From an uncultured cyanobacterium (GTDB taxonomy: Bacteria; Cyanobacteriota; Cyanobacteriia; Cyanobacteriales; CAWCAG01): 64,000 bases of DNA. Every line of letters starts with the position of its first letter. Positions within the stretch are counted from its first letter, which is position 1. The position numbers and the translations under genes were made by a program. Location of the stretch: assembly GCA_963803805.1 (NCBI GenBank), contig CAWDOD010000011.1, positions 128,001 to 192,000 of the forward strand, read 5' to 3'. Under the pieces are notes generated by a model that saw nothing but the letters and a program-made list of their open reading frames with translations, was not told the DNA's origin and did not search any database. Positions 737 to 61,117 of this stretch are shown here, piece by piece.

Positions 737-767
737 TAGAAACATTCCGTCGGAACGTCTCTACTAG
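733..767. repeat. REP-like palindromic element between FAAL and ACAD
   Basis: ctagtagaaacattccgtcggaacgtctctactag is an imperfect palindrome of the GTAGAGACGTT...AACGTCTCTAC type. Confidence 0.65.
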
Positions 768-785
768 AAAAAGGAGAATATATTA

Positions 786-2594
786 ATGCATCCCTTAAAA
801 CAATATTGGGTCGCAGAAACCTTAGAAAAAGACTTAGGCGCACCCTCAAACCCTAACAGTAAAGTTTCTTGGCAACGTACTGCTGAGTTGGACGAAAAAG
901 AAGAGTTTCCCCAAGCAGAAATTGACTGGCTTTATAACCAGAAGTTGCAACATTACTACATTCCTAGTGAATGTGGCGGTGAATTCACCAACTTTGAAGA
1001 ATTTGTCGCTTTTGTGCGAGTTCTTTCTCGCCGGGATCAAAACGTAGCGATCGCCTTTACCACCATGTTTTGGTCTTATTTATGCTGGATGGCAGGAACC
1101 CCAGAACAGAAAAAGAAACTGGCTAGTCTCATGAAAGATGAGAACGAAACCATGTGTCTGGCTTATTCAGAAAAGGAACATGGTAGCGACTTAGTAGGGG
1201 GAGAAACCACAGCTACAAAGGTTCCTGGCGGTTACTTACTCAACGGGGAAAAATGGCCCATTAACCGCGCCACCCGTTCCGGTACAACTTTTGTAATTGC
1301 CCAAACCGACCCAGAAGGGGGAAGCAGAAGCCTTTCTCTATTCATGGTGGATAAGCGGGAATTAGACAAGTCTCAATATTACAACCTACCCAAAATTCCC
1401 TGCCACGGTATCAAAGCCGCAGATATGAGTGGTATTGGTTTCACAGATTGTTTCATCCCGGAGAGTACCCTGTTAGGGGAAGAAGGGCAAGGTTTAGAAT
1501 TAGGTCTAAAAGGCTTCCAAATCACCCGTACCCTCTGTGCTGCCTTTTCCCAAGGGGCCGCAGATACCACAGTGCGTACCACCTTGAAACTTGCTTTAAA
1601 TAGAATAGTTTATGGTAAAACAGTCTTTGACCTCCCTTTCCCCCGCCGCATCTTAGTAAACGCTTTCCTCGATATATTAATTTGCGATTGCGAAGTAATT
1701 GCCTCAGCTAGAGGTTTCAGTATCATTCCCCAACAATTTAGTGTTTGGGCTTCGGTGGTTAAATATTTCGTTCCCATTACCTTAGAAAATATGATTAACG
1801 GCCTTTCTTCGGTATTAGGGGCGCGTTTCTATTTTCGGGATGAACACGACTCTGGAGTTTTCCAAAAAATGCTCCGGGATAACTCTATTATTAGCATTTT
1901 TGATGGTAGTGGCTTGGTTAACCTCCATGCCTTAATTTTACAATTTCGTCAAATTGCTAAACACCGTAGCCGCCTTAACGAAAAGAAGAAACAAGCCTTG
2001 GCATCCCGTCTGGAGAAAATCTTCACCCTTAACCAAGAAGTTCCCCACTTTGACGGCAGCAAACTAGAAATTTTTGGTCGTGGTGCAGATGATGCCATGC
2101 AGGGTTTAGAACTATCCCTGGCTAAGTTAAAGGAGTTGAAAAATAATCCTGATGTTAGCCAACAGGTACTTAAGTATATCCTCCAACTGAGCAATAAACT
2201 AAGTGCAGAAGTCAACCAGATGCACGAAAATTTTGCTAACTCAAGCTTTGAATTTGGTCATGATCAAACTCCGGAGTCCTTTGAATTAGCCAAAAAGTAC
2301 TGTGCTTTACACGCTGCTAGTTGTTGCATCCATATGTGGGTTTATAACCGCACCAACTTAGAACCATTCTTTGCCCAAGGAGAATGGTTAGTTTTAGCCC
2401 TTAACAAGCTACTAAAACCCTATCATCCTAACGAAGAGTTGATTTTGCCGGATTATGGAGAAAACTTAGCTCAAGAACTAGTTAAACTTTATAACCAAGA
2501 CAAACTCTTTTCCATTGTTCCTTTCCAATTAGCACAAACCCAATCTCAGGAGAATAAAAAAGATGCAAGTTCAGAACTACAACTCCAAGCCTAG
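786..2594 (+). CDS. Acyl-CoA/acyl-ACP dehydrogenase
   Basis: CLAYSEKEHGSDL, LNGEKWPINRA, GEEGQGLE and SIFDGS motifs of the ACAD family. Lies between FAAL and ACP. AAGGAG RBS upstream. Confidence 0.9.
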   Translation: MHPLKQYWVAETLEKDLGAPSNPNSKVSWQRTAELDEKEEFPQAEIDWLYNQKLQHYYIPSECGGEFTNFEEFVAFVRVLSRRDQNVAIAFTTMFWSYLCWMAGTPEQKKKLASLMKDENETMCLAYSEKEHGSDLVGGETTATKVPGGYLLNGEKWPINRATRSGTTFVIAQTDPEGGSRSLSLFMVDKRELDKSQYYNLPKIPCHGIKAADMSGIGFTDCFIPESTLLGEEGQGLELGLKGFQITRTLCAAFSQGAADTTVRTTLKLALNRIVYGKTVFDLPFPRRILVNAFLDILICDCEVIASARGFSIIPQQFSVWASVVKYFVPITLENMINGLSSVLGARFYFRDEHDSGVFQKMLRDNSIISIFDGSGLVNLHALILQFRQIAKHRSRLNEKKKQALASRLEKIFTLNQEVPHFDGSKLEIFGRGADDAMQGLELSLAKLKELKNNPDVSQQVLKYILQLSNKLSAEVNQMHENFANSSFEFGHDQTPESFELAKKYCALHAASCCIHMWVYNRTNLEPFFAQGEWLVLALNKLLKPYHPNEELILPDYGENLAQELVKLYNQDKLFSIVPFQLAQTQSQENKKDASSELQLQA

Positions 2595-2880
2595 TGAACA
2601 AGCTACAGGGGAGAATTCCCCCACAGAAGCGATTCAAAGCTGGTTAGTGGCGCAATTAGCCGAGGAATTATCCTTAGACCCCAACTCTATTAAAGTTAGC
2701 GAACCCTTGACCCGTTATGGTTTAGACTCAATTGATGCTGTAACTTTGGTGGGTGATTTAGAAGACTGGTTAGATTTAGAGTTACCTTCTACTTTATTCT
2801 GGGATCACCCCACGATCGAAAAATCTGCCCAGTTTCTCGTTTCTGAGTTTGATGTGGCAGAAGCGTTGGAAGAGGCCTAA
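2563..2880 (+). CDS. Acyl carrier protein (stand-alone, pathway-dedicated)
   Basis: YGLDSIDAV phosphopantetheine-Ser motif and LFWDHPTI. Overlaps the ACAD stop region. Confidence 0.92.
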   Translation: MQVQNYNSKPSEQATGENSPTEAIQSWLVAQLAEELSLDPNSIKVSEPLTRYGLDSIDAVTLVGDLEDWLDLELPSTLFWDHPTIEKSAQFLVSEFDVAEALEEA

Positions 2881-2992
2881 GTTATCTCATCTAAGTTATG
2901 CCCTTTTGGGGAGATGGGGAGATGGGGAAACAAGATAATATCTTTTGCCCTTTACCCTTTATCTGTAAAACCCTGTTCCCCCTTCCTTCTAA

Positions 2993-3029
2993 CCACTAGC
3001 CACTAGCCACTAGCCATTAGCAATTAGCA
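2993..3029. repeat. Heptamer tandem repeat (CCACTAG/CCATTAG), STRR-like
   Basis: ccactagccactagccactagccattagcaattagca. Related runs at 5444-5488, 6815-6850 and about 45022-45043. Confidence 0.8.
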
Positions 3030-3039
3030 TCAAAATAAA

Positions 3040-4515
3040 TTGAACTTTTCAGACTTTTCATTTTGGTGGGTGCTGCTACTCTACAGCATTCCGTTTTTAA
3101 TCATTCGCACTATTGGCAAGTCCATTAACCGTTGGTTGCCGGAATTTGACCGCATTGGTTTAATGGTCTTGTCTTTGACGTTGTTTTTAAATGCTTCTTT
3201 TAAAAGCTTCGCTGTCTTCCTGTTTGAGATTATTTTTAATTACTTAATGGTGCGGTTAATGCTGCGCCAAAAAGGAACTTCAGCCAAACTGTTGGCCACT
3301 TTGGTGATTGTTTTTGATATTGCTATTTTGGCTTATTTTAAATATTTAACTTTTTTTGTTGAAGATGTAATCGGTTTAGGCATACCTGGTGGCATCTCAG
3401 AAAATTGGCAAGCAGGCTTTCCTTTACCCGTATTTAATCAAATTCCCCCTGGAGTTTCCTTCTATACCTTCCAAATGGTATCTTTTGTGGTGGAATCCCT
3501 GAAGCAAACCAAAAGGAAACGCCAGCCTAAACCCATTGCTTTTATTGATTACGTTAACTTTGTGGCCTTTTTTCCTCAAATTGTTGCTGGTCCTATTGAA
3601 CGGCGTTCAGATTTATTTCCCCAACTCCAAAAATTTGAATTTCAATTTAAGGCAGATAATATTGAAGCGGGACTGCGTTGGTTTTCCCTAGGACTATTTA
3701 TGAAAATGGTTCTGGCGGATAATCTTTTCCCTTTCATTGATATAGAACAAGCAACCAATCCTTGGTTAGTGTGGTTGTATGCTTTCCTCTTTACCCTGAG
3801 AATTTACTTTGATTTTGCCGGTTATAGTTTCATGGCTTTGGGTATTGCTAGGACTATGGGGGTACAACTAACTATCAACTTTCTCTCTCCCTATACTTCC
3901 ACCAGTATTCAAGAATTTTGGCGACGGTGGCATATCACCTTAAGTACTTGGTTTCGGGATTATGTCTTTATTCCTTTGATGGGGACTAACAAAAAGTGGG
4001 CCACTTCCTATCTTTTCATAACCTTCACCCTGTCTGGTTTCTGGCACGGTGCAGCTTGGAATTTTATTATTTGGGGAGCATACCACGGGGCTTTATTGCT
4101 TCTGTTGCGTTATGCTGGGCGGCCTTTCCAACGCTTGGTGGGGCAACCTGGCGGAGGTTCGCAGTTTTTCTCTTGGGCTTTAACTTTTGGGTCAGTAATT
4201 TTGGGTTGCTTATTCTTTATGGAAACGAATATTAGCCGCTTAGTTACCAAACTACAAACTATTATTAATCCCACAGCTTATTCCTGGGGTAACTTAACTG
4301 GGGCTTTTAGCGATTTTACCGTTAATGAAATAGCTGCTCTTAGTTTAACCTTGGGGCTAAGTTTGGGTTGGTTACTAATTGAACATATTGAAGTTTGGCA
4401 AAAACGCCCCGAATACGAACTACTCCGAAACCCTTGGGTATCCCCTTTGCTGCTAGGTTTAACCTTTTTATTAGCAGCTAATCAACCTTCTGAATTTATT
4501 TACTTTGAATTCTAA
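3040..4515 (+). CDS. MBOAT family O-acyltransferase (AlgI/DltB-like)
   Basis: GVSFYTFQ, FFPQIVAGPIER, IYFDFAGYS, EFWRRWHITLSTWFRDY and catalytic GFWHGA motifs. C-terminal FIYFEF. TTG start. Confidence 0.95.
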   Translation: MNFSDFSFWWVLLLYSIPFLIIRTIGKSINRWLPEFDRIGLMVLSLTLFLNASFKSFAVFLFEIIFNYLMVRLMLRQKGTSAKLLATLVIVFDIAILAYFKYLTFFVEDVIGLGIPGGISENWQAGFPLPVFNQIPPGVSFYTFQMVSFVVESLKQTKRKRQPKPIAFIDYVNFVAFFPQIVAGPIERRSDLFPQLQKFEFQFKADNIEAGLRWFSLGLFMKMVLADNLFPFIDIEQATNPWLVWLYAFLFTLRIYFDFAGYSFMALGIARTMGVQLTINFLSPYTSTSIQEFWRRWHITLSTWFRDYVFIPLMGTNKKWATSYLFITFTLSGFWHGAAWNFIIWGAYHGALLLLLRYAGRPFQRLVGQPGGGSQFFSWALTFGSVILGCLFFMETNISRLVTKLQTIINPTAYSWGNLTGAFSDFTVNEIAALSLTLGLSLGWLLIEHIEVWQKRPEYELLRNPWVSPLLLGLTFLLAANQPSEFIYFEF

Positions 4516-5444
4516 TGTCGAAACCTTTAAACCTACTGAAATGGTTCGCTGCGGCTGGTTTAGCTTGGGGTCTTGGTTGCGTTTATAACGTTTACTATGG
4601 CGGCGAGTTAAGTTGGTTGCGGATTATGTATCAAGAGAAAGTCGCCTTAGCCAAAAAGATCGAAGCCCCAAGAAGATTAATTATTACCGGGGGTTCAGGG
4701 GCCCATTACACAATTAATTCTGAGTTGTTGGAAAAAGAGTTAGGCATACCTGTAATTAACCTGGGTATAGATGGTCCTGTGGGATTAGATGTAATTCTAC
4801 CCAGTGTTCTTAAGCAAGTGCAACCAGGGGATGTCGTCCTATTAATTCCTGAATATTTAGTTCTCCTCGATGAAGATGGTTTAGGGGAACGTTCCGGCCC
4901 TTTTGTTTTGGCTACCGGACAGGTTGGTATAGGAGATATTCCCCCGAAACAGTTGGCCCAGGATATTTGGATGTTAGGCATTCCTAGCTTAAGGGCCTTG
5001 ACAAAATCAACTTTTGACCTCTTCCAAGAAGGTAGATTGACAGGTTACTATTCTGACCCCATTACCGAACGAGGAGATCCCACAGTAATTAAAGAAAGGA
5101 CAGGGGAATGGTGGAAATTAAAAATTCAAGACCCCATCTCACCCCACTCTGTTAAACGCATCAAAAAGTTTCGCGAAGAATTAGAAGCTAAGGAGGCAAA
5201 TTTAGTTATTTCTTTGCCTTGGGTTTATGCGGAAAAAGACAAAAATACTCTCAAAAATGTCAAAAAAACTGCCCAAGAAATGGAGAAAATTGCCCCTCTA
5301 ATTTATGATCCCAAAAATTACAATATCCAAAGCGATTCGGATCTCTTCGCCGACACCCACTACCATCTCAAATTAGATTCCATGAAAATGCGATCGCGCC
5401 AAATTGCTGAAGAAATTGAACCGATTTTGGAAGAATTAGAGTGA
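4515..5444 (+). CDS. Membrane-anchored DltD/SGNH-like protein (MBOAT partner)
   Basis: N-terminal TM, IITGGSGAHY (putative nucleophile Ser), NLG block and C-terminal FADTHYHL. Translationally coupled to the MBOAT (TAATG overlap). Confidence 0.6.
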   Translation: MSKPLNLLKWFAAAGLAWGLGCVYNVYYGGELSWLRIMYQEKVALAKKIEAPRRLIITGGSGAHYTINSELLEKELGIPVINLGIDGPVGLDVILPSVLKQVQPGDVVLLIPEYLVLLDEDGLGERSGPFVLATGQVGIGDIPPKQLAQDIWMLGIPSLRALTKSTFDLFQEGRLTGYYSDPITERGDPTVIKERTGEWWKLKIQDPISPHSVKRIKKFREELEAKEANLVISLPWVYAEKDKNTLKNVKKTAQEMEKIAPLIYDPKNYNIQSDSDLFADTHYHLKLDSMKMRSRQIAEEIEPILEELE

Positions 5445-5571
5445 TTGTTAATTGTTAATTGCTATTGGCTAATGGCTAATGGCTAGTTGCTGGTTGTCAG
5501 AGGGAACAGAGAAGAGAATAGGCAATAGTATTGTTCTTTACTTATTACCCATCACCTTCCTTGAAAAGTAA

Positions 5572-6771
5572 ATGTCAGATCAAACCAATCTTCCTAATAC
5601 AACAACTCCTATCAAAATCTGCATCCTGGGAGGTGGTTTTGGTGGGCTTTATACGGCTTTATATTTGCAGTCTTTTAAAGGGATTAATTCTTCTCGCTAT
5701 CAAGTTACGTTAGTTGATCAAAATGACCATCTTCTCTTTACTCCCTTGCTTTATGAAGTGATTACTGATGAGTTACAAACTTGGGAAATTGCCCCTACTT
5801 ATAAAAAGTTGTTGAATCATACAAAGGTAAGAATTATTCAGGATCGAGTTGTTGCTTTAGATTTAGAAAGTCGTTCAGTAAAACTACAACAAGGACAACT
5901 TACCTATGATTATTTAGTTCTTGCTTTAGGGAATAAGAATCGTTTTGCAGGAGTTCCGGGGGCGAAAGAACATAGTTTAACTTTCCGTAGCTTAAAAGAT
6001 ACTTTACGTTTGAAAGAAAGGCTTGGGGAATTGGCAAAATCGGCAAGGGAAACTATTCATGTAGTAATTATTGGTGGTGGCCCGAGTGGAGTAGAATTAG
6101 GGACAAAAATAGCTGACTTTTTGGGTAGAAGGGGAGAGATACGCTTAATAGAAAGGGGGACTCAAATTCTCAAAGCTTATACCCCAGCAACCCAACGTAG
6201 CGGTAAGGAAGCTTTGGAAAAAAGAGGAGTGAGGATAAGTTTTGAAACTAGTGTTGAGAGGGTTGAACCGGATCAAGTTACTTTAATCCAAAAAGGAGAA
6301 ACTTTTGCTATTCCGGTAGATTTAGTGTTGTGGAGTGCAGGTACAAAAACTCAGGAATTAATTGCTAATTTAACTTGCCAACATAATGAACAAGGACAAG
6401 TAATTACTTTACCTACTCTACAAATCCCCGAATATCCTGAAGTACTTGCTTTAGGAGATTTAGCAGAAGTTAAAAACCCTAATGGTAAATTAGTCCCCGC
6501 AACGGCACAAGCCGCTTATCAACAAGCAAGTCAAGCAGCTAAAAATTTGAGGGCTAGTTTGGCAAATAAACCTTTAAAACGCTTTCGTTATTTGCATTTA
6601 GGAGAAATGATTACTTTAGGGGTTAATGATGCAGCAGTTTCAAGTTTCGGTATCAATTTAAAAGGTTCCCTAGCTGCTTTGGTAAGAAGAATTGTTTATC
6701 TTCAACGCTTACCAACTTTTTCTCATCGTTGGAAAGTTCTTAAGGGCTGGTTGGGGCTAAGTAATAAGTAA
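5572..6771 (+). CDS. Type II NAD(P)H:quinone oxidoreductase, NdbB-like flavoprotein
   Basis: ICILGGGFGGLYTAL, PLLYE...QTWEIAP, second Rossmann GGGPSGVE, ALGD and PATAQAAYQQA motifs. Confidence 0.88.
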   Translation: MSDQTNLPNTTTPIKICILGGGFGGLYTALYLQSFKGINSSRYQVTLVDQNDHLLFTPLLYEVITDELQTWEIAPTYKKLLNHTKVRIIQDRVVALDLESRSVKLQQGQLTYDYLVLALGNKNRFAGVPGAKEHSLTFRSLKDTLRLKERLGELAKSARETIHVVIIGGGPSGVELGTKIADFLGRRGEIRLIERGTQILKAYTPATQRSGKEALEKRGVRISFETSVERVEPDQVTLIQKGETFAIPVDLVLWSAGTKTQELIANLTCQHNEQGQVITLPTLQIPEYPEVLALGDLAEVKNPNGKLVPATAQAAYQQASQAAKNLRASLANKPLKRFRYLHLGEMITLGVNDAAVSSFGINLKGSLAALVRRIVYLQRLPTFSHRWKVLKGWLGLSNK

Positions 6772-6857
6772 TAAGTAAAGGGAATAATGATTTATGTCAG
6801 CAGTTAGATATTAACAACTAGCCATTAGCAACTAGCCATTAGCCATTAGCAAAAACT

Positions 6858-8744
6858 ATGAAAGAAAAACCTAAAAATATCTGGGCATCTAAATTTTCAC
6901 AAGTATTTGGTTTCGACTTGCGATCGCTGGCTGCTTTTCGTGTTGGTTTGGCATTAGTTATTTTAGCAGATTTGTTTACCCGTTTAGGGGATTTAACTGC
7001 CCATTATACCGATTTAGGTGTTTTACCTCGTTCTGCTTTGGAAGGGGGCATTCTTAAGCCTTGGTATTGGTCAATTCATTTGATTAGTGGGCAACCTGTA
7101 GTACAGTTTCTGATATTTTTAACCGCTATTTTAGTTACTTTGTGCCTATTAGTTGGTTATCGTACTAGGTTAGCTACTATTGCTTGTTGGGCTTTAATTG
7201 TTTCTATGCACAACCGCAATCCTGCCTTGATTTTTGCTGCGGATGATGTGTTGCGGGCTATTTTATTTTGGGCGATGTTTCTACCTTTAGGATCAGCCTA
7301 TTCATTAGATAGTGCTTTTAATAATTCCCCGAAACCTTTACCGAAACGAGTGGTTTCTGGGGCAACTATTGCTTTATTGGTACAACAATGTTTTATTTAT
7401 ATTTTTTCTGCTGCTTTTAAAACCCAAAGTCCTACTTGGTTCCCCGATTATACCGCAGTTTATTATGCCTTGAGTTTTGATCAATATGTCACTCATATAG
7501 GACGTTTTTTACTTAATTTTCCTCCCTTGTTATCCATATCTACAGCTATTACTTTAGTTTTAGAGTGGATTGGGCCATTGTTTTTATTAATACCAAATAA
7601 CCTGGTTCGTTTATTCACCGTACTAACTTTTATTGGCTTACACGCTGGCTTTGGTTTAACTTTAAATATTGGCATTTTTCCTTTCCTGAGTATTGCTACT
7701 TGGTTAGTATTTTTGCCTTCTTCTTTTTGGGATGGTTTAGCCAGGAAGTTTGCAACTCAGGAAAGGCAGGGTTTGCGAATTTATTATGATGCTGATTGCG
7801 GTTTTTGTAAGAAAGTAGTTTATATTCTGCGTACCCTCCTTATCTTGCCGGGAACACCCCTTTTATTGGCACAGGATGACCAGTCTATTTATGAAGATAT
7901 GCAGAGAATTAATTCTTGGGTTGTGGTGGATGCTAAGGGAAATCGCTATTATAAATTTGGTGCTATTGCCTATGTAGTTAGTATTTCTCCTATCTTTTTT
8001 CCTTTAGCCAAAATTTTACGCTGGCAACCGATTATGAAGGTAGGAAATAGGTTCTATGAAACCATTGCTAATAATCGCCGCAAAGCAGGATTTTTTACCA
8101 AACCTTTTAAGTTTCGCCCCCTTACAGTTCGTCCTTCTTTACTCCTTAATATTGTTACCTCTCTACTATTGATTTTAACCTTTCTTTGGAATCTACGCAG
8201 CTTTACCAACCATTTTGCTTTCCTCGATAATAAAAGCAAAACTTTTACAGCTTTGCGACGAGTTACTAATAGCAGAACCCTACAAAGAATCGATCCTTTA
8301 AGTCGTATCAGCAGATTAGACCAATCCTGGAGTATTTTTGCTCCTAGTCCCCCGAAAGATGATGGTTGGCACGTCATGCCAGGGAAACTTAAAAATGGGG
8401 AAGAGGTAGATGTTTTTCAAAATGGTGATCCAATAAATTGGAAAAAACCAACCTTAAATAAGCGCAATTCCCTCTATAAAAATATGCAATGGCGTACTTA
8501 TTTTATCAACCTTAATCGTAATATTGGTAAGAAGCTTTACCCTCACTACGGTAAGTATGTTTGTCAAAACTGGAATCAACACCATCAAGGAGAGGAAGTA
8601 TTAGAGAGTTTTGAAGTTTATTTCGTGGCAGAAGAAACAGCCGAACCAGGAAAAAAACAGAATCTAGAACGTAAAAAAGTCGGCGAATATTCTTGTTCGC
8701 AGCAAGATAAGGAAGTAAGGAAAGAAGGGCAAGAATCGGAGTAA
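6858..8744 (+). CDS. HTTM-domain membrane protein with inserted DCC1/DUF393 thiol-disulfide oxidoreductase domain
   Basis: DLRSLAAFR, LLVGYRTR, HNRNP, FLPLG..YSLD and IYIFSAAFK motifs. Internal YYDADCGFC (DxxCxxC). C-terminal DQSWSIFAP. Confidence 0.8.
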   Translation: MKEKPKNIWASKFSQVFGFDLRSLAAFRVGLALVILADLFTRLGDLTAHYTDLGVLPRSALEGGILKPWYWSIHLISGQPVVQFLIFLTAILVTLCLLVGYRTRLATIACWALIVSMHNRNPALIFAADDVLRAILFWAMFLPLGSAYSLDSAFNNSPKPLPKRVVSGATIALLVQQCFIYIFSAAFKTQSPTWFPDYTAVYYALSFDQYVTHIGRFLLNFPPLLSISTAITLVLEWIGPLFLLIPNNLVRLFTVLTFIGLHAGFGLTLNIGIFPFLSIATWLVFLPSSFWDGLARKFATQERQGLRIYYDADCGFCKKVVYILRTLLILPGTPLLLAQDDQSIYEDMQRINSWVVVDAKGNRYYKFGAIAYVVSISPIFFPLAKILRWQPIMKVGNRFYETIANNRRKAGFFTKPFKFRPLTVRPSLLLNIVTSLLLILTFLWNLRSFTNHFAFLDNKSKTFTALRRVTNSRTLQRIDPLSRISRLDQSWSIFAPSPPKDDGWHVMPGKLKNGEEVDVFQNGDPINWKKPTLNKRNSLYKNMQWRTYFINLNRNIGKKLYPHYGKYVCQNWNQHHQGEEVLESFEVYFVAEETAEPGKKQNLERKKVGEYSCSQQDKEVRKEGQESE

Positions 8745-8805
8745 GAGATTAATGGTTTGACAAGCAAAAATCGTTTATTACCTATTACCTATTACCTAAT
8801 CAGCC

Positions 8806-10293
8806 ATGCTTTTCAATTCCTACGTTTTCATCTTCATCTTCCTACCCATAACCTTAATTGGCTTTTTTAGCTTAACAAGGTTTAAATTTACCAAATTAGC
8901 AACAGTTTGGTTAACAGTTAGTTCCTTTATTTTCTACGGTTATTGGAACCCTCTCTACCTACCTTTACTCATTCTTTCTGTTGTCTTTAACCATCAAATG
9001 GGGGCGCAAATTGGTAAACTTATTGCCCAAAATAATCAGAAGCAGGCAAAGGTATTTCTTTGGGTAGGAATCATCATCAACTTATTAAGTATTGGCTATT
9101 ATAAATATGCCAATTTCTTCTTCACTTCCCTTAATGATACTTTTGGTAGCAATTTCACTATTTACCGGATAATTTTACCTTTAGGTATATCCTTCTATAC
9201 TTTTACCCAGATTGCCTATCTTGTTGATGCCTATCGAGGAGAAACCGATAAATTAAACTATGACCTTTTAACCTATAGTTTATTTGTTTCTTTTTTCCCT
9301 CAACTAATTGCAGGACCAATTCTGCGCCACGATGAACTTATTCCCCAATTCCGTAAATTAAAAAACTTCGTTTTTTCTCATAAAAACTTTGCTCTAGGTT
9401 TAGTCTTATTTAGTTTAGGGTTATGTAAAAAAGTTCTCATAGCAGATAGTGTTTCTCCTTGGGTAGCTGATATTTTTGCAAATGCTACTGAGGTTAACTT
9501 TATAGAAGCCTGGGTGGGTGCATTAAGTTATACCTTACAACTTTATTTTGATTTCTCCGGCTACTCTGATATGGCTATTGGTTTAGGATTGATGTTTAAT
9601 ATCAACTTACCAATTAACTTTAATTCTCCTTACAAAGCGACTTCTATTAGTGATTTTTGGCGACGGTGGCATATTACTTTATCTAATTTTTTGAGGGACT
9701 ATCTCTACATTCCTTTAGGAGGAAGTCGCAAAGGGGAAATACGTCGCTACTCTAATTTGATTACCACTATGTTATTAGGAGGATTGTGGCATGGTGCAGG
9801 TTGGCCTTTTGTTATTTGGGGAGGTATTCATGGACTTTATTTATCTATCAACCATGCTTGGCGCAAATATGCCTTTCCTTTACCAAAAATAGTTGCTTGG
9901 TTTATAACTTTTACAAGTGTGGTTTTTAGTTGGGTACTATTTCGTGCTGTCACTTTAAGAGATGGCATAGAGATATTAACAGCGATGGTTGGCTTGAAAG
10001 GTATAGTTGTTCCTGGAGAAGCGACGGGTAAATTAGGTTTTCTAACGAATTTTGGTATTCAACTACAGTCATGGAATAATATTACCTACCTACCAGAAAC
10101 TAACGATAGCAAAATCATCACCTTAGCAGTTCTTTTGGGATTAGTACTAGCGGTTGCTTTATTACCAAATACGCAACAAATTCTCCAAAAGCTAAAACCT
10201 ACTTGGTGGTGGGCTGTTAGCATTGGTTTGTTAACTAGCTATTGTTTACTATCCCTTAACCGTGTTTCTGAGTTCCTTTATTTCCAATTTTAA
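8806..10293 (+). CDS. MBOAT family O-acyltransferase (AlgI-like)
   Basis: MLFNSY start, LPLGISFYTF, FFPQLIAGPI, LYFDFSGYSDMAIG, DFWRRWHITLS and GLWHGA motifs. C-terminal FLYFQF. Confidence 0.95.
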   Translation: MLFNSYVFIFIFLPITLIGFFSLTRFKFTKLATVWLTVSSFIFYGYWNPLYLPLLILSVVFNHQMGAQIGKLIAQNNQKQAKVFLWVGIIINLLSIGYYKYANFFFTSLNDTFGSNFTIYRIILPLGISFYTFTQIAYLVDAYRGETDKLNYDLLTYSLFVSFFPQLIAGPILRHDELIPQFRKLKNFVFSHKNFALGLVLFSLGLCKKVLIADSVSPWVADIFANATEVNFIEAWVGALSYTLQLYFDFSGYSDMAIGLGLMFNINLPINFNSPYKATSISDFWRRWHITLSNFLRDYLYIPLGGSRKGEIRRYSNLITTMLLGGLWHGAGWPFVIWGGIHGLYLSINHAWRKYAFPLPKIVAWFITFTSVVFSWVLFRAVTLRDGIEILTAMVGLKGIVVPGEATGKLGFLTNFGIQLQSWNNITYLPETNDSKIITLAVLLGLVLAVALLPNTQQILQKLKPTWWWAVSIGLLTSYCLLSLNRVSEFLYFQF

Positions 10294-10320
10294 ATCCGTT
10301 GCCTAATGAAGTAATGAATA

Positions 10321-11517
10321 ATGAAAACTTTCCCTGAAAAACCCGAGGTTGCTAAAACCAAAAAGATAAAACAGCGTCGAAAGAAACAGTATCGACATTT
10401 TACTCTTTTCCTTTTAGTTATTATTTTTCTACCAACTCTTACTGTTGGCCTATTTAATTGGCGGATTGATCCCTATGGCATTTTTAATAGTCCAGAAATT
10501 AAAGGTTTTAATCAAGCCAAACCAGAGAAGCTTAAAAATACAAGATTATTTAAAGCTGTGGCAATTACTAATCTCAAACCTATTACTATATTCCTTGGTT
10601 CTTCTCGCACAGACTACGGTTTAGAACCCAACCATCCTGCTTTAAAACAACCAGCTTATAATTTAGGTTTAGGGGCAGCAAGTCCCTACGAACTTCTCGC
10701 TTATTTAAAACACGCTATCTATAACCAAGAAAATATTGAACAAATTGTAATTGGTTTAGATGAGTTTATGTTTAATGCTAACAATGAAGCTAGCCCAGAT
10801 TTTTCCGAAGCCCGTTTAGAAACCAAAAATATTACTCTTCTTGATACTATCAACACCACATTTTCTCTAGATGCAATTGCGGCGAGTCAAGAAACTATTG
10901 AAGCTAGCAAAACTAATCCTAATTATGTTACCCATAGCCCAAAAGGTCAGTTACAGCTAAGATTGATTGATCGTGATAAATCGGCAACAGATTACCGCTT
11001 TAATACGAGTATTGGTTTTTATTTCAAGTCCTTTCCGCAAGATTATCAATTATCTCAAAAGCACTTGGATAACCTGAAAAAGATTGTCAAATTAGCCAAA
11101 GAAAATGATATAGCTATTAAAGCTTTCATTTCTCCTGCCCATGCCACTCGCTATGAAACAATTCGCGTTGCGGGGCATTGGCAAGAATACGAAGAAATGA
11201 AGCGACAATTAGTGAAGATTTTGCCAGTTTGGGATTTTTCTGGTTATAACAGTATCACCATAGAACCGATTAGCGAAGAGATTAAAAATTATATTGATGA
11301 TTCCCATTATCAAGAAGAAGTTGGTAATTTAGTTCTCAATCGTCTATTCAACTATGAAGTAGAAAAAGTACCAGAAGATTTTGGTGTTCTCGTTACATCC
11401 CAAAATATAGAATCCCATTTAGCTAAGATTCGTTCTCAACAAGCAATTTGGGAAGAGAATAATCCTGAAGAAGTAGAAATGGTGAAAGAGATTCAAAATA
11501 ACCTTGCTAATCGCTAA
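10321..11517 (+). CDS. Membrane-anchored SGNH-like protein (MBOAT partner)
   Basis: TM followed by IDPYG, then FLGSSR, YNLG, GLD, FISPAH, WDFSGYN and DDSH (DxxH). Confidence 0.65.
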   Translation: MKTFPEKPEVAKTKKIKQRRKKQYRHFTLFLLVIIFLPTLTVGLFNWRIDPYGIFNSPEIKGFNQAKPEKLKNTRLFKAVAITNLKPITIFLGSSRTDYGLEPNHPALKQPAYNLGLGAASPYELLAYLKHAIYNQENIEQIVIGLDEFMFNANNEASPDFSEARLETKNITLLDTINTTFSLDAIAASQETIEASKTNPNYVTHSPKGQLQLRLIDRDKSATDYRFNTSIGFYFKSFPQDYQLSQKHLDNLKKIVKLAKENDIAIKAFISPAHATRYETIRVAGHWQEYEEMKRQLVKILPVWDFSGYNSITIEPISEEIKNYIDDSHYQEEVGNLVLNRLFNYEVEKVPEDFGVLVTSQNIESHLAKIRSQQAIWEENNPEEVEMVKEIQNNLANR

Positions 11518-11635
11518 TTGCTATATGTAAGGGCTGGTTTGAGTGGAAACTATGATTTCAACATCAAATAAAATAAACTCGCCCCAGTCACCTAGTTGAA
11601 CAAAAATCCCATTTTCTATTTTTAAAAACTCCGGA

Positions 11636-12901
11636 GTGGTTTTTATATTTGTTAGTCAACAGGGATATATAATAACTAATCAACAAACCTCAAACCTTGT
11701 CAACTTGCTTCTACCTTCCCCTTCAGGTTCTTTCCAAATCAATCTTGTCTCTACTTCTAAAAAGAAACTTTCCCTAATTTTACCTACCTATAATGAAAGC
11801 AAAAATCTTCAGTTCGTTATTTCCCAGCTAATTAGTTTATTAGACAGTAAGTTACCAGAAAACTACGAACTCATTGTCGTTGACGATGATAGCCCTGACA
11901 AAACCTGGAAAATTGCTCAATCTTTGCTGCCGAAATATTCTCAACTCAAAGTAATTCGCCGTCAGGGAGAAAAGGGACTTTCTACTGCGGTAATTCGTGG
12001 TTGGCAAGCATCCCAAGGAGACATATTGGGGGTTATAGATGCTGATTTACAACATCCCCCAGAGATCCTGGTTTCGATGGTAAACACTATTGAAGAAGGA
12101 AGAGATTTAGTAATTGCTAGTCGCCATATAGAAGGAGGAGGTGTCAGCGACTGGAGTTTTGGGAGAAGATTTTTGTCTCGCGGCGCACAAACCATTGGCT
12201 TAGTAATTTTACCAGAAGTTGTTGGTAAAGTATCTGATCCCATGAGTGGCTATTTTTTGGTGAAGAGAGAGGCGATCGCTCAGCAAAAATTAAACCCGCG
12301 AGGTTATAAGATTCTCATTGAAGTGTTAGCCCGTTGCCATATTAGTAAAATAGCTGAAGTAGGCTATATTTTTCAAGAACGTCAAGCAGGTGAGAGTAAA
12401 GTAACCTACCAACAATATTTAGACTACCTCGTACATTTAATTGTTTTACGCCTCTATTTATGGCAAGTTAATCGCTTTATACGCTTCGGTTTAGTGGGTT
12501 TAACTGGTGTATTTGTAGATATGAGTATACTTTACCTATTAAGCGATCCTCACACCTTAGCTTGGGGGCTAACTCGTAGCAAAATTATTGCTGGGGAAGT
12601 AGCAATTATCAACAATTTCTTGTGGAATGATGCTTGGACATTTGCAGATATTGCTATCAAACAAATAGGTTGGCAACAACGTTTGAAACGCCTCTTGAAA
12701 TTCAACCTGATTTGCTTGCTAGGCTTATTTCTTAATGTCGTAATCCTCAACCTCTTATTCAACTACTTAGGTTTCAACAACTTCTCGACTGGCAGATATA
12801 TAGCTAACCTCATAGCAATAGCTATCGTTACTGGGTGGAATTTTTGGCTTAATCTTAAATTGAGTTGGCGAGTAACCCAGGTAAATAGCAAGAAAACTTA
12901 G
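11636..12901 (+). CDS. Polyprenol-phosphate glycosyltransferase (DPM1-like GT2) fused to a GtrA domain
   Basis: ILPTYNE, VVDDDSPDKT, IDADLQHPP and DPMSGYF motifs. C-terminal GtrA (RFGLVGLTG...NFLWN...WNFWLN). Start codon uncertain. Confidence 0.9.
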   Translation: MVFIFVSQQGYIITNQQTSNLVNLLLPSPSGSFQINLVSTSKKKLSLILPTYNESKNLQFVISQLISLLDSKLPENYELIVVDDDSPDKTWKIAQSLLPKYSQLKVIRRQGEKGLSTAVIRGWQASQGDILGVIDADLQHPPEILVSMVNTIEEGRDLVIASRHIEGGGVSDWSFGRRFLSRGAQTIGLVILPEVVGKVSDPMSGYFLVKREAIAQQKLNPRGYKILIEVLARCHISKIAEVGYIFQERQAGESKVTYQQYLDYLVHLIVLRLYLWQVNRFIRFGLVGLTGVFVDMSILYLLSDPHTLAWGLTRSKIIAGEVAIINNFLWNDAWTFADIAIKQIGWQQRLKRLLKFNLICLLGLFLNVVILNLLFNYLGFNNFSTGRYIANLIAIAIVTGWNFWLNLKLSWRVTQVNSKKT

Positions 12902-16417: not shown

Positions 16418-17476
16418 ATGAACAAACCTGTCATTATTTGTATAGATGACGAACCTACCGTACTTGAAAGTCTCAAAATAGAGCTAAAAAAAGCTCTAGG
16501 GGATGCTTATATAATCGAAGCCACAGAAGGGGGAGAAGAAGCTTTAGAACTGTTTAAAGAACTAATGGAAGATGAATATGAAGTAGCCTTAGTTCTATCT
16601 GATTATATTATGCCCGATATCAAAGGAGACGAACTTTTAAAACGTATTCATACCATTTCTCCCCAAACCCTGAAAATCATGCTTACAGGGCAAGCTGACT
16701 TAGAAGCAGTAAGTAATGCTATTAAGTATGCAAAGCTATACCGTTATATTGCTAAACCTTGGCAACCTGAAGATTTAAAAATTACCGTTTTAGAAGCAGT
16801 TCATAGCTATCTTCAAGATAAAAAACTCACTGAACAAAATACTAAGCTGCAACAAATGAACCAGCAGTTAGAAGAACTAAACCTTCATCAAGCAGCTTTA
16901 ATTAGGGAACGTACCTCTGAATTAGAGAAAGCCAATCAAGAATTACATCGCCTCGCTAATCTAGACGGTTTAACCAAAATAGCCAACCGCCGCTGTTTCG
17001 ATCAATATCTTACTCAAGAATGGCAAAGATTAGCTAAAATGCAACAACCTTTATCAATTATTTTTGCTGATATAGATTCTTTTAAAAGCTACAATGATCA
17101 ATACGGGCATCAAGCAGGGGATGACTGTCTGCGGGCTGTTTCCCAAGCCATGAGTTCTACACTCACTAAAGGTTTAGTGGCGCGGTATGGAGGAGAAGAA
17201 TTTGCCTTCGTCTTACCTAATACAGAAACCACAGAAGCTGTGCAAACGGCGATCGCCATTCAATCAGCCATCCAACAACTAAAAATTGCCCATCAACCTT
17301 CAACTGCTGTAAAGGAATATTTAACCCTAAGTTTAGGTATTGCCACAACTATCCCTCAACAGGAATGCTTGCCATCAACCCTAACCACTCAAGCAGATAT
17401 TGCTCTTTACAAAGCAAAAAAACAAGGTCGTAATAGATACTGTATTAACAAAGCAGGATCATCACAGGAAGCATGA
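16418..17476 (+). CDS. Response-regulator diguanylate cyclase (REC-coiled coil-GGEEF)
   Basis: IDDE, SDYIMP and KPW receiver motifs. DGLT..ANRR, DIDSFK.YND.YGH..GD and RYGGEEF. Confidence 0.95.
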   Translation: MNKPVIICIDDEPTVLESLKIELKKALGDAYIIEATEGGEEALELFKELMEDEYEVALVLSDYIMPDIKGDELLKRIHTISPQTLKIMLTGQADLEAVSNAIKYAKLYRYIAKPWQPEDLKITVLEAVHSYLQDKKLTEQNTKLQQMNQQLEELNLHQAALIRERTSELEKANQELHRLANLDGLTKIANRRCFDQYLTQEWQRLAKMQQPLSIIFADIDSFKSYNDQYGHQAGDDCLRAVSQAMSSTLTKGLVARYGGEEFAFVLPNTETTEAVQTAIAIQSAIQQLKIAHQPSTAVKEYLTLSLGIATTIPQQECLPSTLTTQADIALYKAKKQGRNRYCINKAGSSQEA

Positions 17477-18003: not shown

Positions 18004-19062
18004 ATGAATAAACCTGTAATTATCTGTGTTGACGACGAACAAACTATCCTTGACAGCCTAGAAATAGAGCTGTCAAGGGTTTTAGGGAATGATTACCTAA
18101 TTGAAACAGCAGGTGGGGGAAAAGAAGCTTTAGAGCTGTTTTCTGACTTACTCGAAGAAGATTATGAAGTTGCTCTAGTAATGTCCGATTATATTATGCC
18201 GGATATTAAAGGGGACGAACTTTTAAAACGCATCCATACCATGTCGCCCCAAACCTTGAAAATCATGCTTACAGGGCAAGCAGATGTCGAAGCAGTGGGT
18301 AATGCCCTCAGAAATGCTAAATTGTATCGTTATATATCCAAACCTTGGCAATCAGAAGACTTAAAAATAACTACAATTGAAGCCATACATAGCTATCTCC
18401 AAGATAAAAAGTTAGCTGAACAAAACGAAAAGTTGAAACACCTTAATAAACAACTAGAAAACTTAATTAGCGACCAAGCAGAATTGATTTCTCAACGCAC
18501 CTCTGAACTAGAACAAGCCAACCAGAAGTTACATCGCCTTGCTACTTTGGATAGTTTAACCCAGATTGCTAACCGCCGTCAGTTTGACCAATATTTAGCT
18601 AGAGAATGGCAAAGGTTAATCCGAACTCAACAACCCTTATCATTAATTTTAGGGGATGTAGATTTTTTTAAAAAATACAATGATGAGTATGGTCATCAAG
18701 CAGGAGATGAATGTCTCCATACTATTGCTCAAGCCCTAGAAAAGGTTGTTGAGACTAATTCTCCTTCCCCGTATCTCGTAGCCCGTTATGGTGGTGAAGA
18801 GTTTGTCATCGTGTTGCCGGAAACAGAATATGAAGGGGCAGCCAAAATAGCTGTGGAGATTCAGTTTGCCCTACAAGAACTTAAAATTCTGCACCGTACC
18901 TCAGATGTTAGTGATTATGTCACTATTAGTATGGGCATTTCTTTGATTTTTCCCCAGATAAAGAAGTCTCCTTTAATGCTAACTAATCTTGCTGATAATG
19001 CCCTTTACGAGGCTAAAAAACAAGGGCGCGATCGTTACTGTGTTTATGCTGTACCTAGGTGA
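18004..19062 (+). CDS. Response-regulator diguanylate cyclase, tandem paralog
   Basis: Same architecture and length (352 aa) as 16418..17476, with RYGGEEF. Confidence 0.95.
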   Translation: MNKPVIICVDDEQTILDSLEIELSRVLGNDYLIETAGGGKEALELFSDLLEEDYEVALVMSDYIMPDIKGDELLKRIHTMSPQTLKIMLTGQADVEAVGNALRNAKLYRYISKPWQSEDLKITTIEAIHSYLQDKKLAEQNEKLKHLNKQLENLISDQAELISQRTSELEQANQKLHRLATLDSLTQIANRRQFDQYLAREWQRLIRTQQPLSLILGDVDFFKKYNDEYGHQAGDECLHTIAQALEKVVETNSPSPYLVARYGGEEFVIVLPETEYEGAAKIAVEIQFALQELKILHRTSDVSDYVTISMGISLIFPQIKKSPLMLTNLADNALYEAKKQGRDRYCVYAVPR

Positions 19063-57854: not shown

Positions 57855-59005
57855 ATGACATCCCAAGGTTTTTCTGTTTCTTTTACTTCATTACTCAAGC
57901 AACTGCTCCTTCTCGGCAGCCGTCATTGGTGGCTATCATTTTTAATTTGGATTGTTTTGGTGGGACCGCCCAAGCTGCTTTTGAATTGCGCGTAGCTATT
58001 AAGGATGGGGTTAGTCAGTTAGATGTCGGTAGTTCTACCCCAGCAGTAATTAAAAACGAAGCTGGACAAAAAATTGGTGAGATTAGGCCAATGAACTCGG
58101 TTACGGCTGTTTCTGAGGGTAATGGGATTAGTTTAGAGGGATATCAAGGTGGTCAAATTTGGATTGAACCAACCGGAGATGGCACTGTTTGGATCGGTGA
58201 TCGTTGGTATCGCGGTGATACTCAATTAGTTCCTAATGGTCAAGGAATTACTGCTATTAATCATGTTGATATTGAAGATTATCTTTATAGTGTGGTTGGG
58301 GCAGAAATGTATGCAAGTTGGCCACAAGAAGCTTTAAAATCCCAAGCTGTATCTGCCCGTACCTATGCCCTTTACCAAAGTGCTAAATCTAATAGCAGTC
58401 TTTATGATTTGGACACTACCACAGCAACTCAAGTTTATAAGGGTTTGAACAGCGAAACTAACACCACTGTACAAGCGGTTGATGCCACCAGAAATGAAGT
58501 TTTAACTTACAACGGAGAACCAATTTTAGCAGTTTTCCATGCTTCTTCTGGAGGTCATACGGAGAATGTAGAAGATATTTGGTCAAATCCTTTGCCTTAT
58601 CTCCGGGGGGTAGTTGATTATGATAATGATGCTCCGGTTTACCAATGGACAAAAAGTTTTAGCAAAGGGCAAATGAGTCAACTGATTGGTGGGGTAGGAA
58701 CAATTAGCTCTATTACTCCTGTTCAAGTTACTCCCCAAGGACGCATTGTCACCATGAAAGCAGTAGGTAGCAATGGTACAAAAGAAGTTAGCGGGGCGCA
58801 ATTACGCAAGGTCTTAGATTTACGCAGTACCCTATTTAGCATCTCTGCTACTGGGGATGGTTTCCAAGTTTCTGGGCGAGGTTTTGGCCATGGTGTCGGG
58901 CTTAGCCAATGGGGGGCAAGAAATTTAGCCCAACAAGGAGTTCAATACAATCAAATTTTAGGTCATTATTATCAAGGTACAAGTATTTCTTTACTGGAAG
59001 AGTAA
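57855..59005 (+). CDS. SpoIID/LytB-domain protein; 5' signal-peptide segment out of frame (1 nt missing at about 57966)
   Basis: YRG, YLYSVVGAEM, EALKSQAVSARTYA, QVY, FHASSGG.TE, PYLRGV, LRST and GHGVGLSQWGA motifs. ATG 57855 encodes ...RHWWLSFLIWIVLVG, which joins PAQAAFELRVAI only after a frameshift. Confidence 0.88.
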
Positions 59006-59046: not shown

Positions 59047-59096
59047 AGGTTAAGTAGTTTAAGCTCATCTTGAGGTGAGCTTAAACTACTTAACCT
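59047..59096. repeat. Perfect 21-bp inverted repeat (8-nt loop)
   Basis: aggttaagtagtttaagctca-tcttgagg-tgagcttaaactacttaacct. Confidence 0.9.
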
Positions 59097-59151
59097 TGCC
59101 CATCCTGCAAAAAAATTAGCACTTCGCGCAAGCCCAAGGGCAAGAGGACAA

Positions 59152-59215
59152 AAAGGTAAAGGGCTAGGAAGTCCTGGGGGAAGAAAGGTAAAGGGCTAGG
59201 AAGTCCTGGGGGAAG
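59152..59215. repeat. Exact 32-bp tandem duplication
   Basis: (aaaggtaaagggctaggaagtcctgggggaag)x2, covering the stop codon of the FGE-like fragment. Confidence 0.9.
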
Positions 59216-59374
59216 AACGGGCAAGGCGAAACCGACATAGTTGAAACGGCTACCGGGAACGTTGAAGAAGCAACAAGCAGAACGACAAATCCAAGGATCG
59301 TTGAGCCAAGAACCACCGCGTCTAATACGGGAACGATTATCATTATCATTATTGTCAATTAACCAAGCACTTCC
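59196..59374 (-). pseudogene. Orphan C-terminal fragment of an FGE-sulfatase/CLec-fold gene (DGR variable-region-like)
   Basis: GSAWLIDNNDNDNRSRIRRGGSWLNDPWICRSACCFFNVPGSRFNYVG, then GFRLARSSPRTS* if one T is restored at 59229-59231. No upstream FGE domain. Confidence 0.8.
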
Positions 59375-59887
59375 AGCAGAAGTAAAGTTTAACAAGCAAA
59401 GTGAGTTATGGCTAAAACCTTGCAACTGTGCTTCACAAAAATTGTATTTTGTCAAATAAACTTTTTCCCTGTTACATAACTTAATACGACTGCATGACCC
59501 TATTAAGCTGTTTGGAGAAGCGAAAGAATTTGATAACAACGCTAAATCAAGCTTTGGGGAGAAAAAACTTGATTTTAGTTATAAGAAACCAAAAATAGCA
59601 TGAGGTAATAATAGCTCAAAAGGCGCAATTGTGTAAATAAGGGTCTTGACAAAGGCAAATAATTTATTTTCGTGACATTTGTTTTTTCAATTTGTAAACA
59701 CCAAAAAGCTTAACAAAACTAATCCTTTTGGTTGTAGCAGAAAAACAAAAACAAAAGTACTTTTATAAAAAATATCGCACAGTCAATTAAAGGAATTTCC
59801 GATAAAGACTGCACGACTAATTTAGATAATTTTAACCACTACATTATCGACAAAGGGTATTTGTTTCTCAACCTGATCACCCCATAA

Positions 59888-61024
59888 TCACCTTTCTCCC
59901 ATACCCAAATAAGGAGCATCATGAACTCCGGTATAAACTTGAGTGGGGCGGAAGATACGGTTAACAGCGAGCTGTTCTTTCCAATGTGCTAACCAACCAG
60001 CTACCCTAGCGATCGCAAATATCGGGGTAAATAAATCTGTAGGAATGCCCAACTTACGATAAACCAAGCCAGAGTAGAAGTCTACGTTAGCATAAATCCC
60101 TCTGTGGCCTAGCTTTTCCTCCACTACAGATTCCAATTCCAAAGCCATTTCGTAATATTTATCCTCCCCAGTTTCAGTAAATAGCTTTTCCACCAAACTT
60201 TGCAGAATAATAGCCCTAGGATCTTTGACCTTATATACTCTGTGGCCAAAGCCCATAATCTTTTGCTTGTGTACCAAACAATTTTCTATATAGGGGCGAA
60301 CATTTGCCACAGAACCAATTTCTTCTAACATCTCAATAACTTCTTCATTAGCACCGCCGTGTAAAGGTCCAGCTAATGTACCTACCGCCGAAGCAATTAC
60401 TCCGTAGGGATCTGTCAAAGTAGAAGCTGTTACCATTGCCGAGAATGTCGAAGCGTTAATGGTATGTTCGGCATGGAGAATCAGACAAACTTCAAAGATT
60501 TTTGCGGCAATAGGATCTGGTTCTTGTTCTGTAAGCATATACAGAAAGTTCCCTGCATAACCAAGGTCGTCTTTTGGTTGTACCGGATCATGACCTTTAC
60601 GCATCAGCTTAAAAGCTGCTACCATCGTCGGCATCTTCGCTAGTAGCCTCACCACTGCTTCTCGAATATATTCTGGGTTATCCAAAGCACGGCGGGAATA
60701 GAACAAGCCTAAAGCTGCTGCTGAGGTTTGTAGGGCATCCATGGGGTGACTAGTCTCTGGGAAACATTTCATCATATCCCGAATGCGATATTTAATGCGC
60801 CGATGATGATTGACATCATATTTGAAAGCAGTAAATTCTTCTTCTGTGGGTAACTTGCCCCAAATTAGTAAGAAAGCTGTTTCTAGAAATGTTGACTTTT
60901 CTGCTAATTCTTCAATACGAATGCCGCGATACTCAAGAATACCCTGTTTGCCATCCACATAGCTAATATCAGACCGGGCTGCGGGAATACCTTCTAAACC
61001 TGGTTTATATTCACAAACTGTCAT
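59888..61024 (-). CDS. gltA: Citrate synthase
   Basis: GLEG, LEYRG, HPM, LHAEHTINAST, GPLHGGANE, MGFGHRVYK.KDPR and NVDFYSG motifs. Likely start MTVCEY. Confidence 0.98.
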   Translation of the reverse strand: MTVCEYKPGLEGIPAARSDISYVDGKQGILEYRGIRIEELAEKSTFLETAFLLIWGKLPTEEEFTAFKYDVNHHRRIKYRIRDMMKCFPETSHPMDALQTSAAALGLFYSRRALDNPEYIREAVVRLLAKMPTMVAAFKLMRKGHDPVQPKDDLGYAGNFLYMLTEQEPDPIAAKIFEVCLILHAEHTINASTFSAMVTASTLTDPYGVIASAVGTLAGPLHGGANEEVIEMLEEIGSVANVRPYIENCLVHKQKIMGFGHRVYKVKDPRAIILQSLVEKLFTETGEDKYYEMALELESVVEEKLGHRGIYANVDFYSGLVYRKLGIPTDLFTPIFAIARVAGWLAHWKEQLAVNRIFRPTQVYTGVHDAPYLGMGER

Positions 61025-61117
61025 ACTTCTACCAATAAGCGACAAAATACTTTTGAGATTATCTTGCTTTGATAAGGTGAATAGTGATTTTTACTACAAC
61101 TAGCACCTAGACAAACA

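Follow-up and report, generated by a model that had tools for sequence, protein, structure and literature searches.

A probable pseudogene stub from the 3′ end of a DGR-type FGE-sulfatase gene in an uncultured cyanobacterium

The diversity-generating retroelements (DGRs) of cyanobacteria include 76 remote targets at the 3′ ends of CLec/FGE genes, and 3′ cis-elements have been suggested to be activating (Vallota-Eastman et al. 2020, PMC7517822). Decayed variable regions (VRs) of cyanobacteria are already in print. The gene all3226 of Nostoc PCC 7120 has remnant homology between template repeat (TR) and VR and no proximal RT (PMC7517822), and decayed VRs of Trichodesmium erythraeum were judged to be no longer targets (PMC4143802). 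In BPP-1 mtd, the sequence upstream of the VR is dispensable and the 3′ hairpin is required (Guo et al. 2011, PMC3240598). The phage-type hairpin/cruciform described there has a GC stem of 7–10 bp and a 4-nt GRNA loop, and lies 4–34 bp from the VR. A non-exhaustive search of the literature found no description of a VR stub without its gene.

We analysed a stretch of 64,000 nucleotides (64 kb) from an uncultured cyanobacterium, hereafter the window. A stub of an FGE-sulfatase/CLec gene lies near its end, with the following features.

59201–59386, minus strand: FGE-sulfatase/CLec domain remnant, recognised by a custom HMM, Pfam PF03781 and protein identities.
59322–59386, minus strand: target-gene coding sequence 5′ of the TR-covered segment, (A)GSAWLIDNNDNDNRSRIR, matching the non-TR part GSAWL.DN.DN.. 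of relatives.
59208–59330, minus strand: VR-equivalent segment, from (I)RRGGSW to just before the AGGACT box and including GGTTTCGCC, with boundaries taken from the L012/L013, L034 and L037 pairs.
59234–59305, minus strand: the 24 codons between GGSW and GF, of which 23 have C/T in the third position, one has G and none has A; A accounts for 10 of 72 bases.
59226–59233, minus strand: GF(R) motif, GGTTTCGC, with a probable 1-nt deletion, after which the conserved R-T-x-stop is no longer in phase with the VR frame.
59196–59207, minus strand: first copy of the post-VR box, AGGACTTCCTAG, present in 4/4 verified VRs and 0/4 TRs, with the conserved stop TAG at 59198–59196.
59152–59215, minus strand: perfect tandem duplication of a 32-nt unit (59152–59183 and 59184–59215; 100% identity, spacing 32).
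59130–59201, minus strand: pyrimidine-rich tract with CCCTT-type repeats, 80% C/T over the 60 nt after the first box.
59109–59129, minus strand: mini-hairpin gcgc-GAA-gtgc (59129–59119; three Watson–Crick pairs and one G-T), taa, and a run of seven T (59115–59109).
59090–59539, minus strand: accidental open frame of 149 codons with a TTG start, containing the remnant; probably not a gene.

The stub encodes the last ~61 of the ~270 positions of the FGE-sulfatase/CLec domain at 59386–59201. Read on the minus strand from 59374 to 59228, it gives ...SAGSAWLIDNNDNDNRSRIRRGGSW, the 24 codons (LNDPWICRSACCFFNVPGSRFNYV) and GF.... A custom HMM, made from nine cyanobacterial FGE C-terminal domains, matches at model positions 210–270 (51.3 bits, E 1.9e-17). 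Pfam PF03781 matches at positions 207–251 of 255 (E 0.0041), with 17.2 bits against a gathering cut-off of 23.3; the stub is a fragment of the family and not a whole domain. The C-termini of all ten full-length FGE proteins listed in a search for longer proteins (156–1485 aa) align with it at 46–58% identity, and some of these homologs carry an N-terminal caspase, NACHT, kinase or TIR domain.

Two tblastn results raised the question of decayed FGE sequence further upstream. P0008 gave one long gapped alignment to the window that extends to 59767 (26.6% over 207 columns, E 6.5e-8), and five proteins gave recurrent weak matches at 59484–59398 (E 0.24–5.7, among the matches listed). Neither is supported by comparison of the HMM with shuffled sequence. 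In six frames, the 510 nt at 59380–59890 reach −1.8 bits with the custom HMM, which is within the range of 200 shuffles (mean −2.25, 95th percentile −0.66 bits) and carries no domain signal. Therefore, ~80% of the FGE domain and any N-terminal domain are absent, not merely frameshifted, in agreement with an earlier reading of the sequence alone, which held that the rest of the gene was missing. The stub is not the 3′ end of an intact coding gene, as it covers positions 210–270 only and its frame is off the conserved stop.

The stub lies downstream of citrate synthase (59888–61045, minus strand) and is convergent with spoIID (57926–59005, plus strand). It forms a compositional island, with a GC content of 48–57% against ~27–38% in the flanks and a minus strand poor in A. 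Between the stub and the end of spoIID, at 59047–59096, is an inverted repeat with 24-nt arms, 96% complementary, and a 2-nt gap. It has no second copy in the window and is the dominant element of the local fold (z −4.9); a terminator scan made no call for it or for the mini-hairpin. An Rfam search returned no match at the gathering score, and the matches reflect the long hairpin. Elsewhere in the window, two adjacent genes for response-regulator/GGDEF proteins of 352 aa with the same domain layout (16418–17476 and 18004–19062) are probably a tandem duplication. A plus-strand cluster at 26–12901 has the appearance of a locus for the O-acylation of lipids or polysaccharides. Its products are AMP-binding, acyl-CoA dehydrogenase and ACP proteins, two MBOAT acyltransferases, a GT2-GtrA glycosyltransferase, a pyridine-nucleotide oxidoreductase and an HTTM/DCC1 protein.

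A genome scan with the pattern GGTGGTTCTTGG-N18-TGTCGTTCTGC, which fixes 23 scaffold bases, returned 58 loci, mostly cyanobacterial. The window's own locus, a near copy of it and a cognate TR are not among these 58. The best DNA matches to the stub are 72% over 138 nt (L049), 69% over 189 nt (L050) and 79% over 80 nt (Fischerella). The pattern matches include four distinct TRs, which are Asn-rich and have non-coding 5′ flanks. Those in L012, L034 and L037 adjoin RVT_1 and bAvd genes, together with FGE-sulfatase targets, and the neighbouring target genes in L037 and L048 are of the caspase-FGE and kinase-FGE types.

In four TR/VR pairs, every mismatch within the region of homology is at a TR adenine. 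The homology starts 9–14 nt 5′ of GGTGGT, at (L)LR, and breaks off at the AGGAC of VRs, in place of which TRs have AGCGC, AGCAC or AGTAC. The VRs of relatives continue into a flank of their own, which consists of an AGGACT-N3-TAG-CCCTTT box, a pyrimidine tract of 40–70 nt, a short GC hairpin (CGCGC-GAA-GCGCG, TCGCC-GTCA-GGCGA and similar) and a T-run. The box followed by a tract of at least 70% pyrimidine occurs in 12 locus segments, including all four VRs with a verified TR partner. No such tract follows the four TRs. At the tract of the stub, the composition profile has a strong strand asymmetry. A conserved group of FGE orthologs (L003, L010, L011, L033 and L057) is also without box and tract.

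This post-VR architecture is kept across several cyanobacterial orders (L012–L014, L016, L023, L034, L037, L049, L050, L055 and L056), in the order AGGAYT box with stop, CCCTTT-type pyrimidine tract, short GC hairpin and (ATCAAA)T-run. The hairpin stems vary in sequence while their pairing is kept. Neither TRs nor conserved non-variable FGE orthologs have this architecture, which may serve this DGR lineage as a target signal or may simply be a terminator that the loci share.

The reference loci show several further features. Two otherwise intact VRs on the minus strand have in-frame stops (..GGSWS-stop-VPGF.. in L016 and ..NRGD-stop-IGFR.. in L049), which could be produced by adenine mutagenesis. 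The cassette of Fischerella PCC 9431 (L012–L014) runs VR2 gene, VR1 gene, avd, RT and TR, with the TR downstream of the RT, and that of L037 runs target with VR, TR, avd and RT. L050 has three tandem FGE genes ~1 kb apart at 1–2130, each with its own VR-type end and box; two are complete (290 and 274 aa) and the third is cut by the end of the locus. In a Bacteroidetes MAG (L045/L046), the 23-base scaffold occurs twice, 1705 nt apart, one copy being A-rich and TR-like and the other VR-like. This is therefore a DGR outside cyanobacteria that shares the same scaffold at the DNA level.

The boundaries of the stub are those of a VR. Its 5′ breakpoint is at ~59383–59390, and DNA-level matches to the loci begin at 59375–59382. 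On this side the stub overshoots the TR start by ~45–55 nt, with target-gene coding sequence GSAWLIDNNDNDN.... On the 3′ side it ends in CCAGGACTTCCTAGCCCTTTACC, with the AGGACT box where TRs have AGCGCT, AGCACT or AGTACT. The box, the tract and GCGCGAAGYG are VR-specific 3′ elements, common to the TR-verified VRs and absent from TRs.

The differences between the stub and TRs are concentrated at adenines. Compared with the four TRs, none of which is its cognate, the stub differs at 13 of the 22 positions that are A in all of them and at 6 of 42 invariant non-A positions. Four of these six fall after the phase shift; before the shift, the count is 2 of 38. Taken TR by TR, mismatches occur at 19–22 of 28–32 A positions and at 19–23 of 69–73 non-A positions (Fisher P 2e-4 to 2e-3 for the four). 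Measured against non-cognate TRs, this enrichment is only suggestive of a VR written by a DGR. The stub itself has A at 10 of 72 bases, against 28–32 of 72 in TRs, and has neither the A-rich AAY composition nor the TR-type ends of a TR or cDNA. Its VR-type character at both ends, taken with the adenine pattern, supports the view that the stub is a remnant of a DGR-type target gene, of VR type and once written from an AAY-rich template, rather than an inserted cDNA. Of the origins proposed in the sequence-only reading, a remote DGR target remnant accords with the FGE/CLec C-terminal scaffold, the flanks shared with 4/4 verified VRs and the differences at TR adenines.

The box motif AGGACTNNNTAGCCCTTT is also found in L023, L034/L035, L050 (three times) and L056. 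The stop codon reported earlier at the end of the stub exists as the TAG at 59198–59196, but it is 1 nt out of the VR frame, and the open frame continues to 59090. The 32-nt duplication, which the earlier reading overlooked, spans the end of the VR-equivalent segment and the box. It thereby doubles the box, and since 32 is not a multiple of three it shifts the frame again. A homing scar was considered as its origin and rejected; both copies are identical and have the VR-type box, so that simple replication slippage suffices. The identity of the two copies also indicates that the duplication is recent.

The hairpin motif GCGCGAAG is written GCGCGAAGTG in the stub. GCGCGAAGYG occurs once in 64 kb (0.02 expected), and in relatives the motif reads GCGCGAAGCG (L016, L024 and L034) and is always downstream of a VR. 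The mini-hairpin noted earlier is indeed present as gcgc-GAA-gtgc at 59129–59119, but one of its pairs is G-T, and it forms in neither the minimum-energy nor the centroid DNA fold. Its significance comes from homology to motifs downstream of VRs. The proposal that it is a hairpin with a GNA loop is not borne out: the stem has 4 bp, the loop is a 3-nt GAA, and the hairpin lies ~40 or 72 nt after the two box copies, compared with the published stem of 7–10 bp, 4-nt GRNA loop and spacing of 4–34 bp.

The phase shift in the GF(R) motif can be read in two ways. The distance from GF to the box is 27 in the stub, and 25, 28, 31 or 34 in 13 of 17 segments that carry GGA[CT]T[CT], with the overlapping loci L038/L039 taken as one. 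Addition of one base in GGTTT(T)CGC yields GFRLARSSPRTS followed by the stop, like the ends SARTS-stop, APRTL-stop and SSRTQ-stop. The unshifted reading GFALPVLPPGLPS, however, has a spacing equal to that of the natural ends GFRVCCLPPGLPS in P0004, P0008 and P0010, and the apparent 1-nt deletion may therefore be the native frame instead. Taken together, the lesions in the sequence (loss of the domain, phase shift, 32-nt duplication and the G-T in the stem) make it most likely that the stub is dead. It is not old, since it has kept all 23 scaffold bases of the search pattern and, before the shift, differs at just 2 of 38 invariant non-A positions.

Upstream sequence of at least 971 nt is available for 56 pattern segments, of which 50 belong to a near-full FGE domain, five rows are TRs (four distinct) and one is a stub. 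This one, L024 (Egbenema sp. chromosome, 1769–2170), is a comparable VR stub without its gene, with FGE model positions 223–267 only. A kinase-like N-terminus of ~60 aa (weak Pfam match, E 0.04) runs out of frame into its VR. The VR carries the box and GCGCGAAGCG, and is the sole pattern match from that genome among the 58 loci.

We consider it probable that the locus is a pseudogene stub that represents the 3′ end of a DGR-targeted type of cyanobacterial FGE-sulfatase/CLec gene, whose 5′ part was lost by deletion or rearrangement. An ancestral FGE gene would have stood on the minus strand between citrate synthase and spoIID, and its C-terminal VR would have been written by adenine-specific mutagenic retrohoming from an AAY-rich TR. 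That ~80% of the FGE domain is missing, together with all that lay 5′ of the domain, is observed; a deletion or rearrangement presumably removed these parts and left the VR, followed by its VR-side box, pyrimidine tract and hairpin with T-run. The 1-nt phase shift in GFR, the 32-nt tandem duplication and the stem mismatch would be later lesions. Because it has acquired these, the stub is most likely no longer rewritten and functionless. We see in it a commonplace relic of a gene rather than a novel system. Annotations should mark the locus as a pseudogene fragment of a DGR-type FGE-sulfatase target and make no gene call for the 149-codon frame.

It is unlikely, in our judgement, that the stub is instead a live orphan homing site, where a remote DGR still rewrites a non-coding VR that serves as a silent diversifying cassette or cDNA sink. 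Truncation alone does not stop homing, because upstream VR sequences are dispensable in BPP-1, where a 5′-truncated VR still homes (PMC3240598). The stub retains the VR scaffold together with the box, the tract and the hairpin motif, and cyanobacteria very commonly encode RTs of this family (E ≤ 1e-20 for all 8000 scored candidates). On the other hand, the phase shift sits within the segment that every homing event would overwrite, and the hairpin stem is weakened. RT, Avd and FGE domains are absent from all 54 ORFs of 90 aa or more in the window, where blastn and tblastn found no TR or sister copy. A search of the 64 kb with the 23-mer tail, allowing three mismatches, recovered the two tandem copies only, and blastn against a plasmid collection recovered two distant FGE genes only. 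A cognate TR is lacking among the 58 loci, and none of the 120 RT profile matches listed, out of 8000, is on the window's contig, which is weak evidence. The stub had been taken to imply a DGR elsewhere in the genome and possibly a reservoir of silent VR cassettes. The first is not shown, given the absence of RT, Avd and TR from the window, the lack of a cognate TR among the 58 loci and the printed examples of VR remnants that lack an active DGR (PMC7517822, PMC4143802); the second has no support, as there is a single copy in the window. The stub alone says nothing on an active DGR in this organism.

A gene-less site could stay live because upstream sequence is dispensable for DGR homing, and it could then act as a non-coding sink or archive that recombines into intact paralogs, with the doubled box providing two 3′ entry points. 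We regard this idea as improbable.

It is also unlikely that the stub is a remnant of an FGE-sulfatase paralog that was never targeted by a DGR and that looks like a VR as a family trait. The codon endings bear on this question. The counts given in the sequence-only reading, 23 of 24 codons ending in C/T and none in A, are correct, and they are unusual for the genome: across the 12516 codons of 28 window genes, a fraction of 0.553 ends in C/T and 0.304 in A. The resulting binomial P is 1.4e-5, and a count of 23 is reached by only 3 of 11872 sliding windows of 24 codons. Nevertheless, the matching segment has 18–23 of 24 such codons in the 12 box-bearing VR-type relatives, 18–22 in the four TRs and 15–23 in 43 other pattern matches, including conserved non-variable orthologs, and 3 of the 24 codons are fixed by the search pattern. 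The bias is therefore a family trait, and we rejected it as proof of mutagenesis. Pfam support taken alone is likewise weak (E 0.004). What argues against an untargeted paralog is the box with the tract, found in 4/4 verified VRs and 0/4 TRs and lacking in the conserved ortholog group, together with the concentration at adenines of the differences from TRs.

The 149-codon frame at 59090–59539 is very unlikely to be a real gene for a small protein. The frame is open, and five promoter-like hexamers lie upstream against 2.1 ± 1.5 expected. However, none of 21 candidates is a homolog or ortholog of similar length, the first 55 residues match nothing, and the frame exists only by virtue of the phase shift and the 32-nt duplication. 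An ectopically integrated DGR cDNA or a displaced TR copy, as might be supposed from a stub that stands alone without its host gene, is ruled out on both boundaries and is the least credible origin, given the 5′ overshoot of ~45–55 nt with GSAWLIDNNDNDN..., the VR-type AGGACT box, tract and hairpin that TRs lack, and the low A content.

The pseudogene stub that we favour can be compared with the systems described at the outset. It shares with the remote CLec/FGE targets of cyanobacteria the C-terminal RGGSW...CRSA...GFR scaffold, the position at a gene 3′ end and the distance from an RT (PMC7517822). Those targets are whole genes with an N-terminal kinase, caspase or similar domain, whereas the stub retains the last ~61 domain positions only, and no cognate TR for it is among the 58 loci. 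The Trichodesmium VRs and all3226 have kept TR-like homology, with changes at non-adenine positions or in the conserved 3′ stretch, or with no proximal RT (PMC4143802, PMC7517822). Their host genes are intact and probably functional, whereas that of the stub is gone.

As in BPP-1 mtd, the VR is followed by an element that is specific to VRs and lies past the TR homology, and by a GC hairpin with a G..A loop (PMC3240598). Unlike that of BPP-1, the hairpin of the stub has a 4-bp stem with one G-T and a 3-nt loop, and is separated from the boxes by ~40 or 72 nt and a pyrimidine tract. The conserved post-VR architecture of box, tract, short GC hairpin and T-run is a candidate target-recognition signal in cyanobacterial FGE-type targets.

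A further counterpart is L024 of Egbenema. Both consist of a VR with box and motif, and both retain only C-terminal positions of the FGE domain. In L024, unlike the stub, the breakpoint is at the 5′ edge of the VR, and a piece of an N-terminal domain survives (weak Pfam kinase match, E 0.04). Beside L024, the stub provides a second example of a target gene that decays from the 5′ side while its VR and 3′ elements survive.
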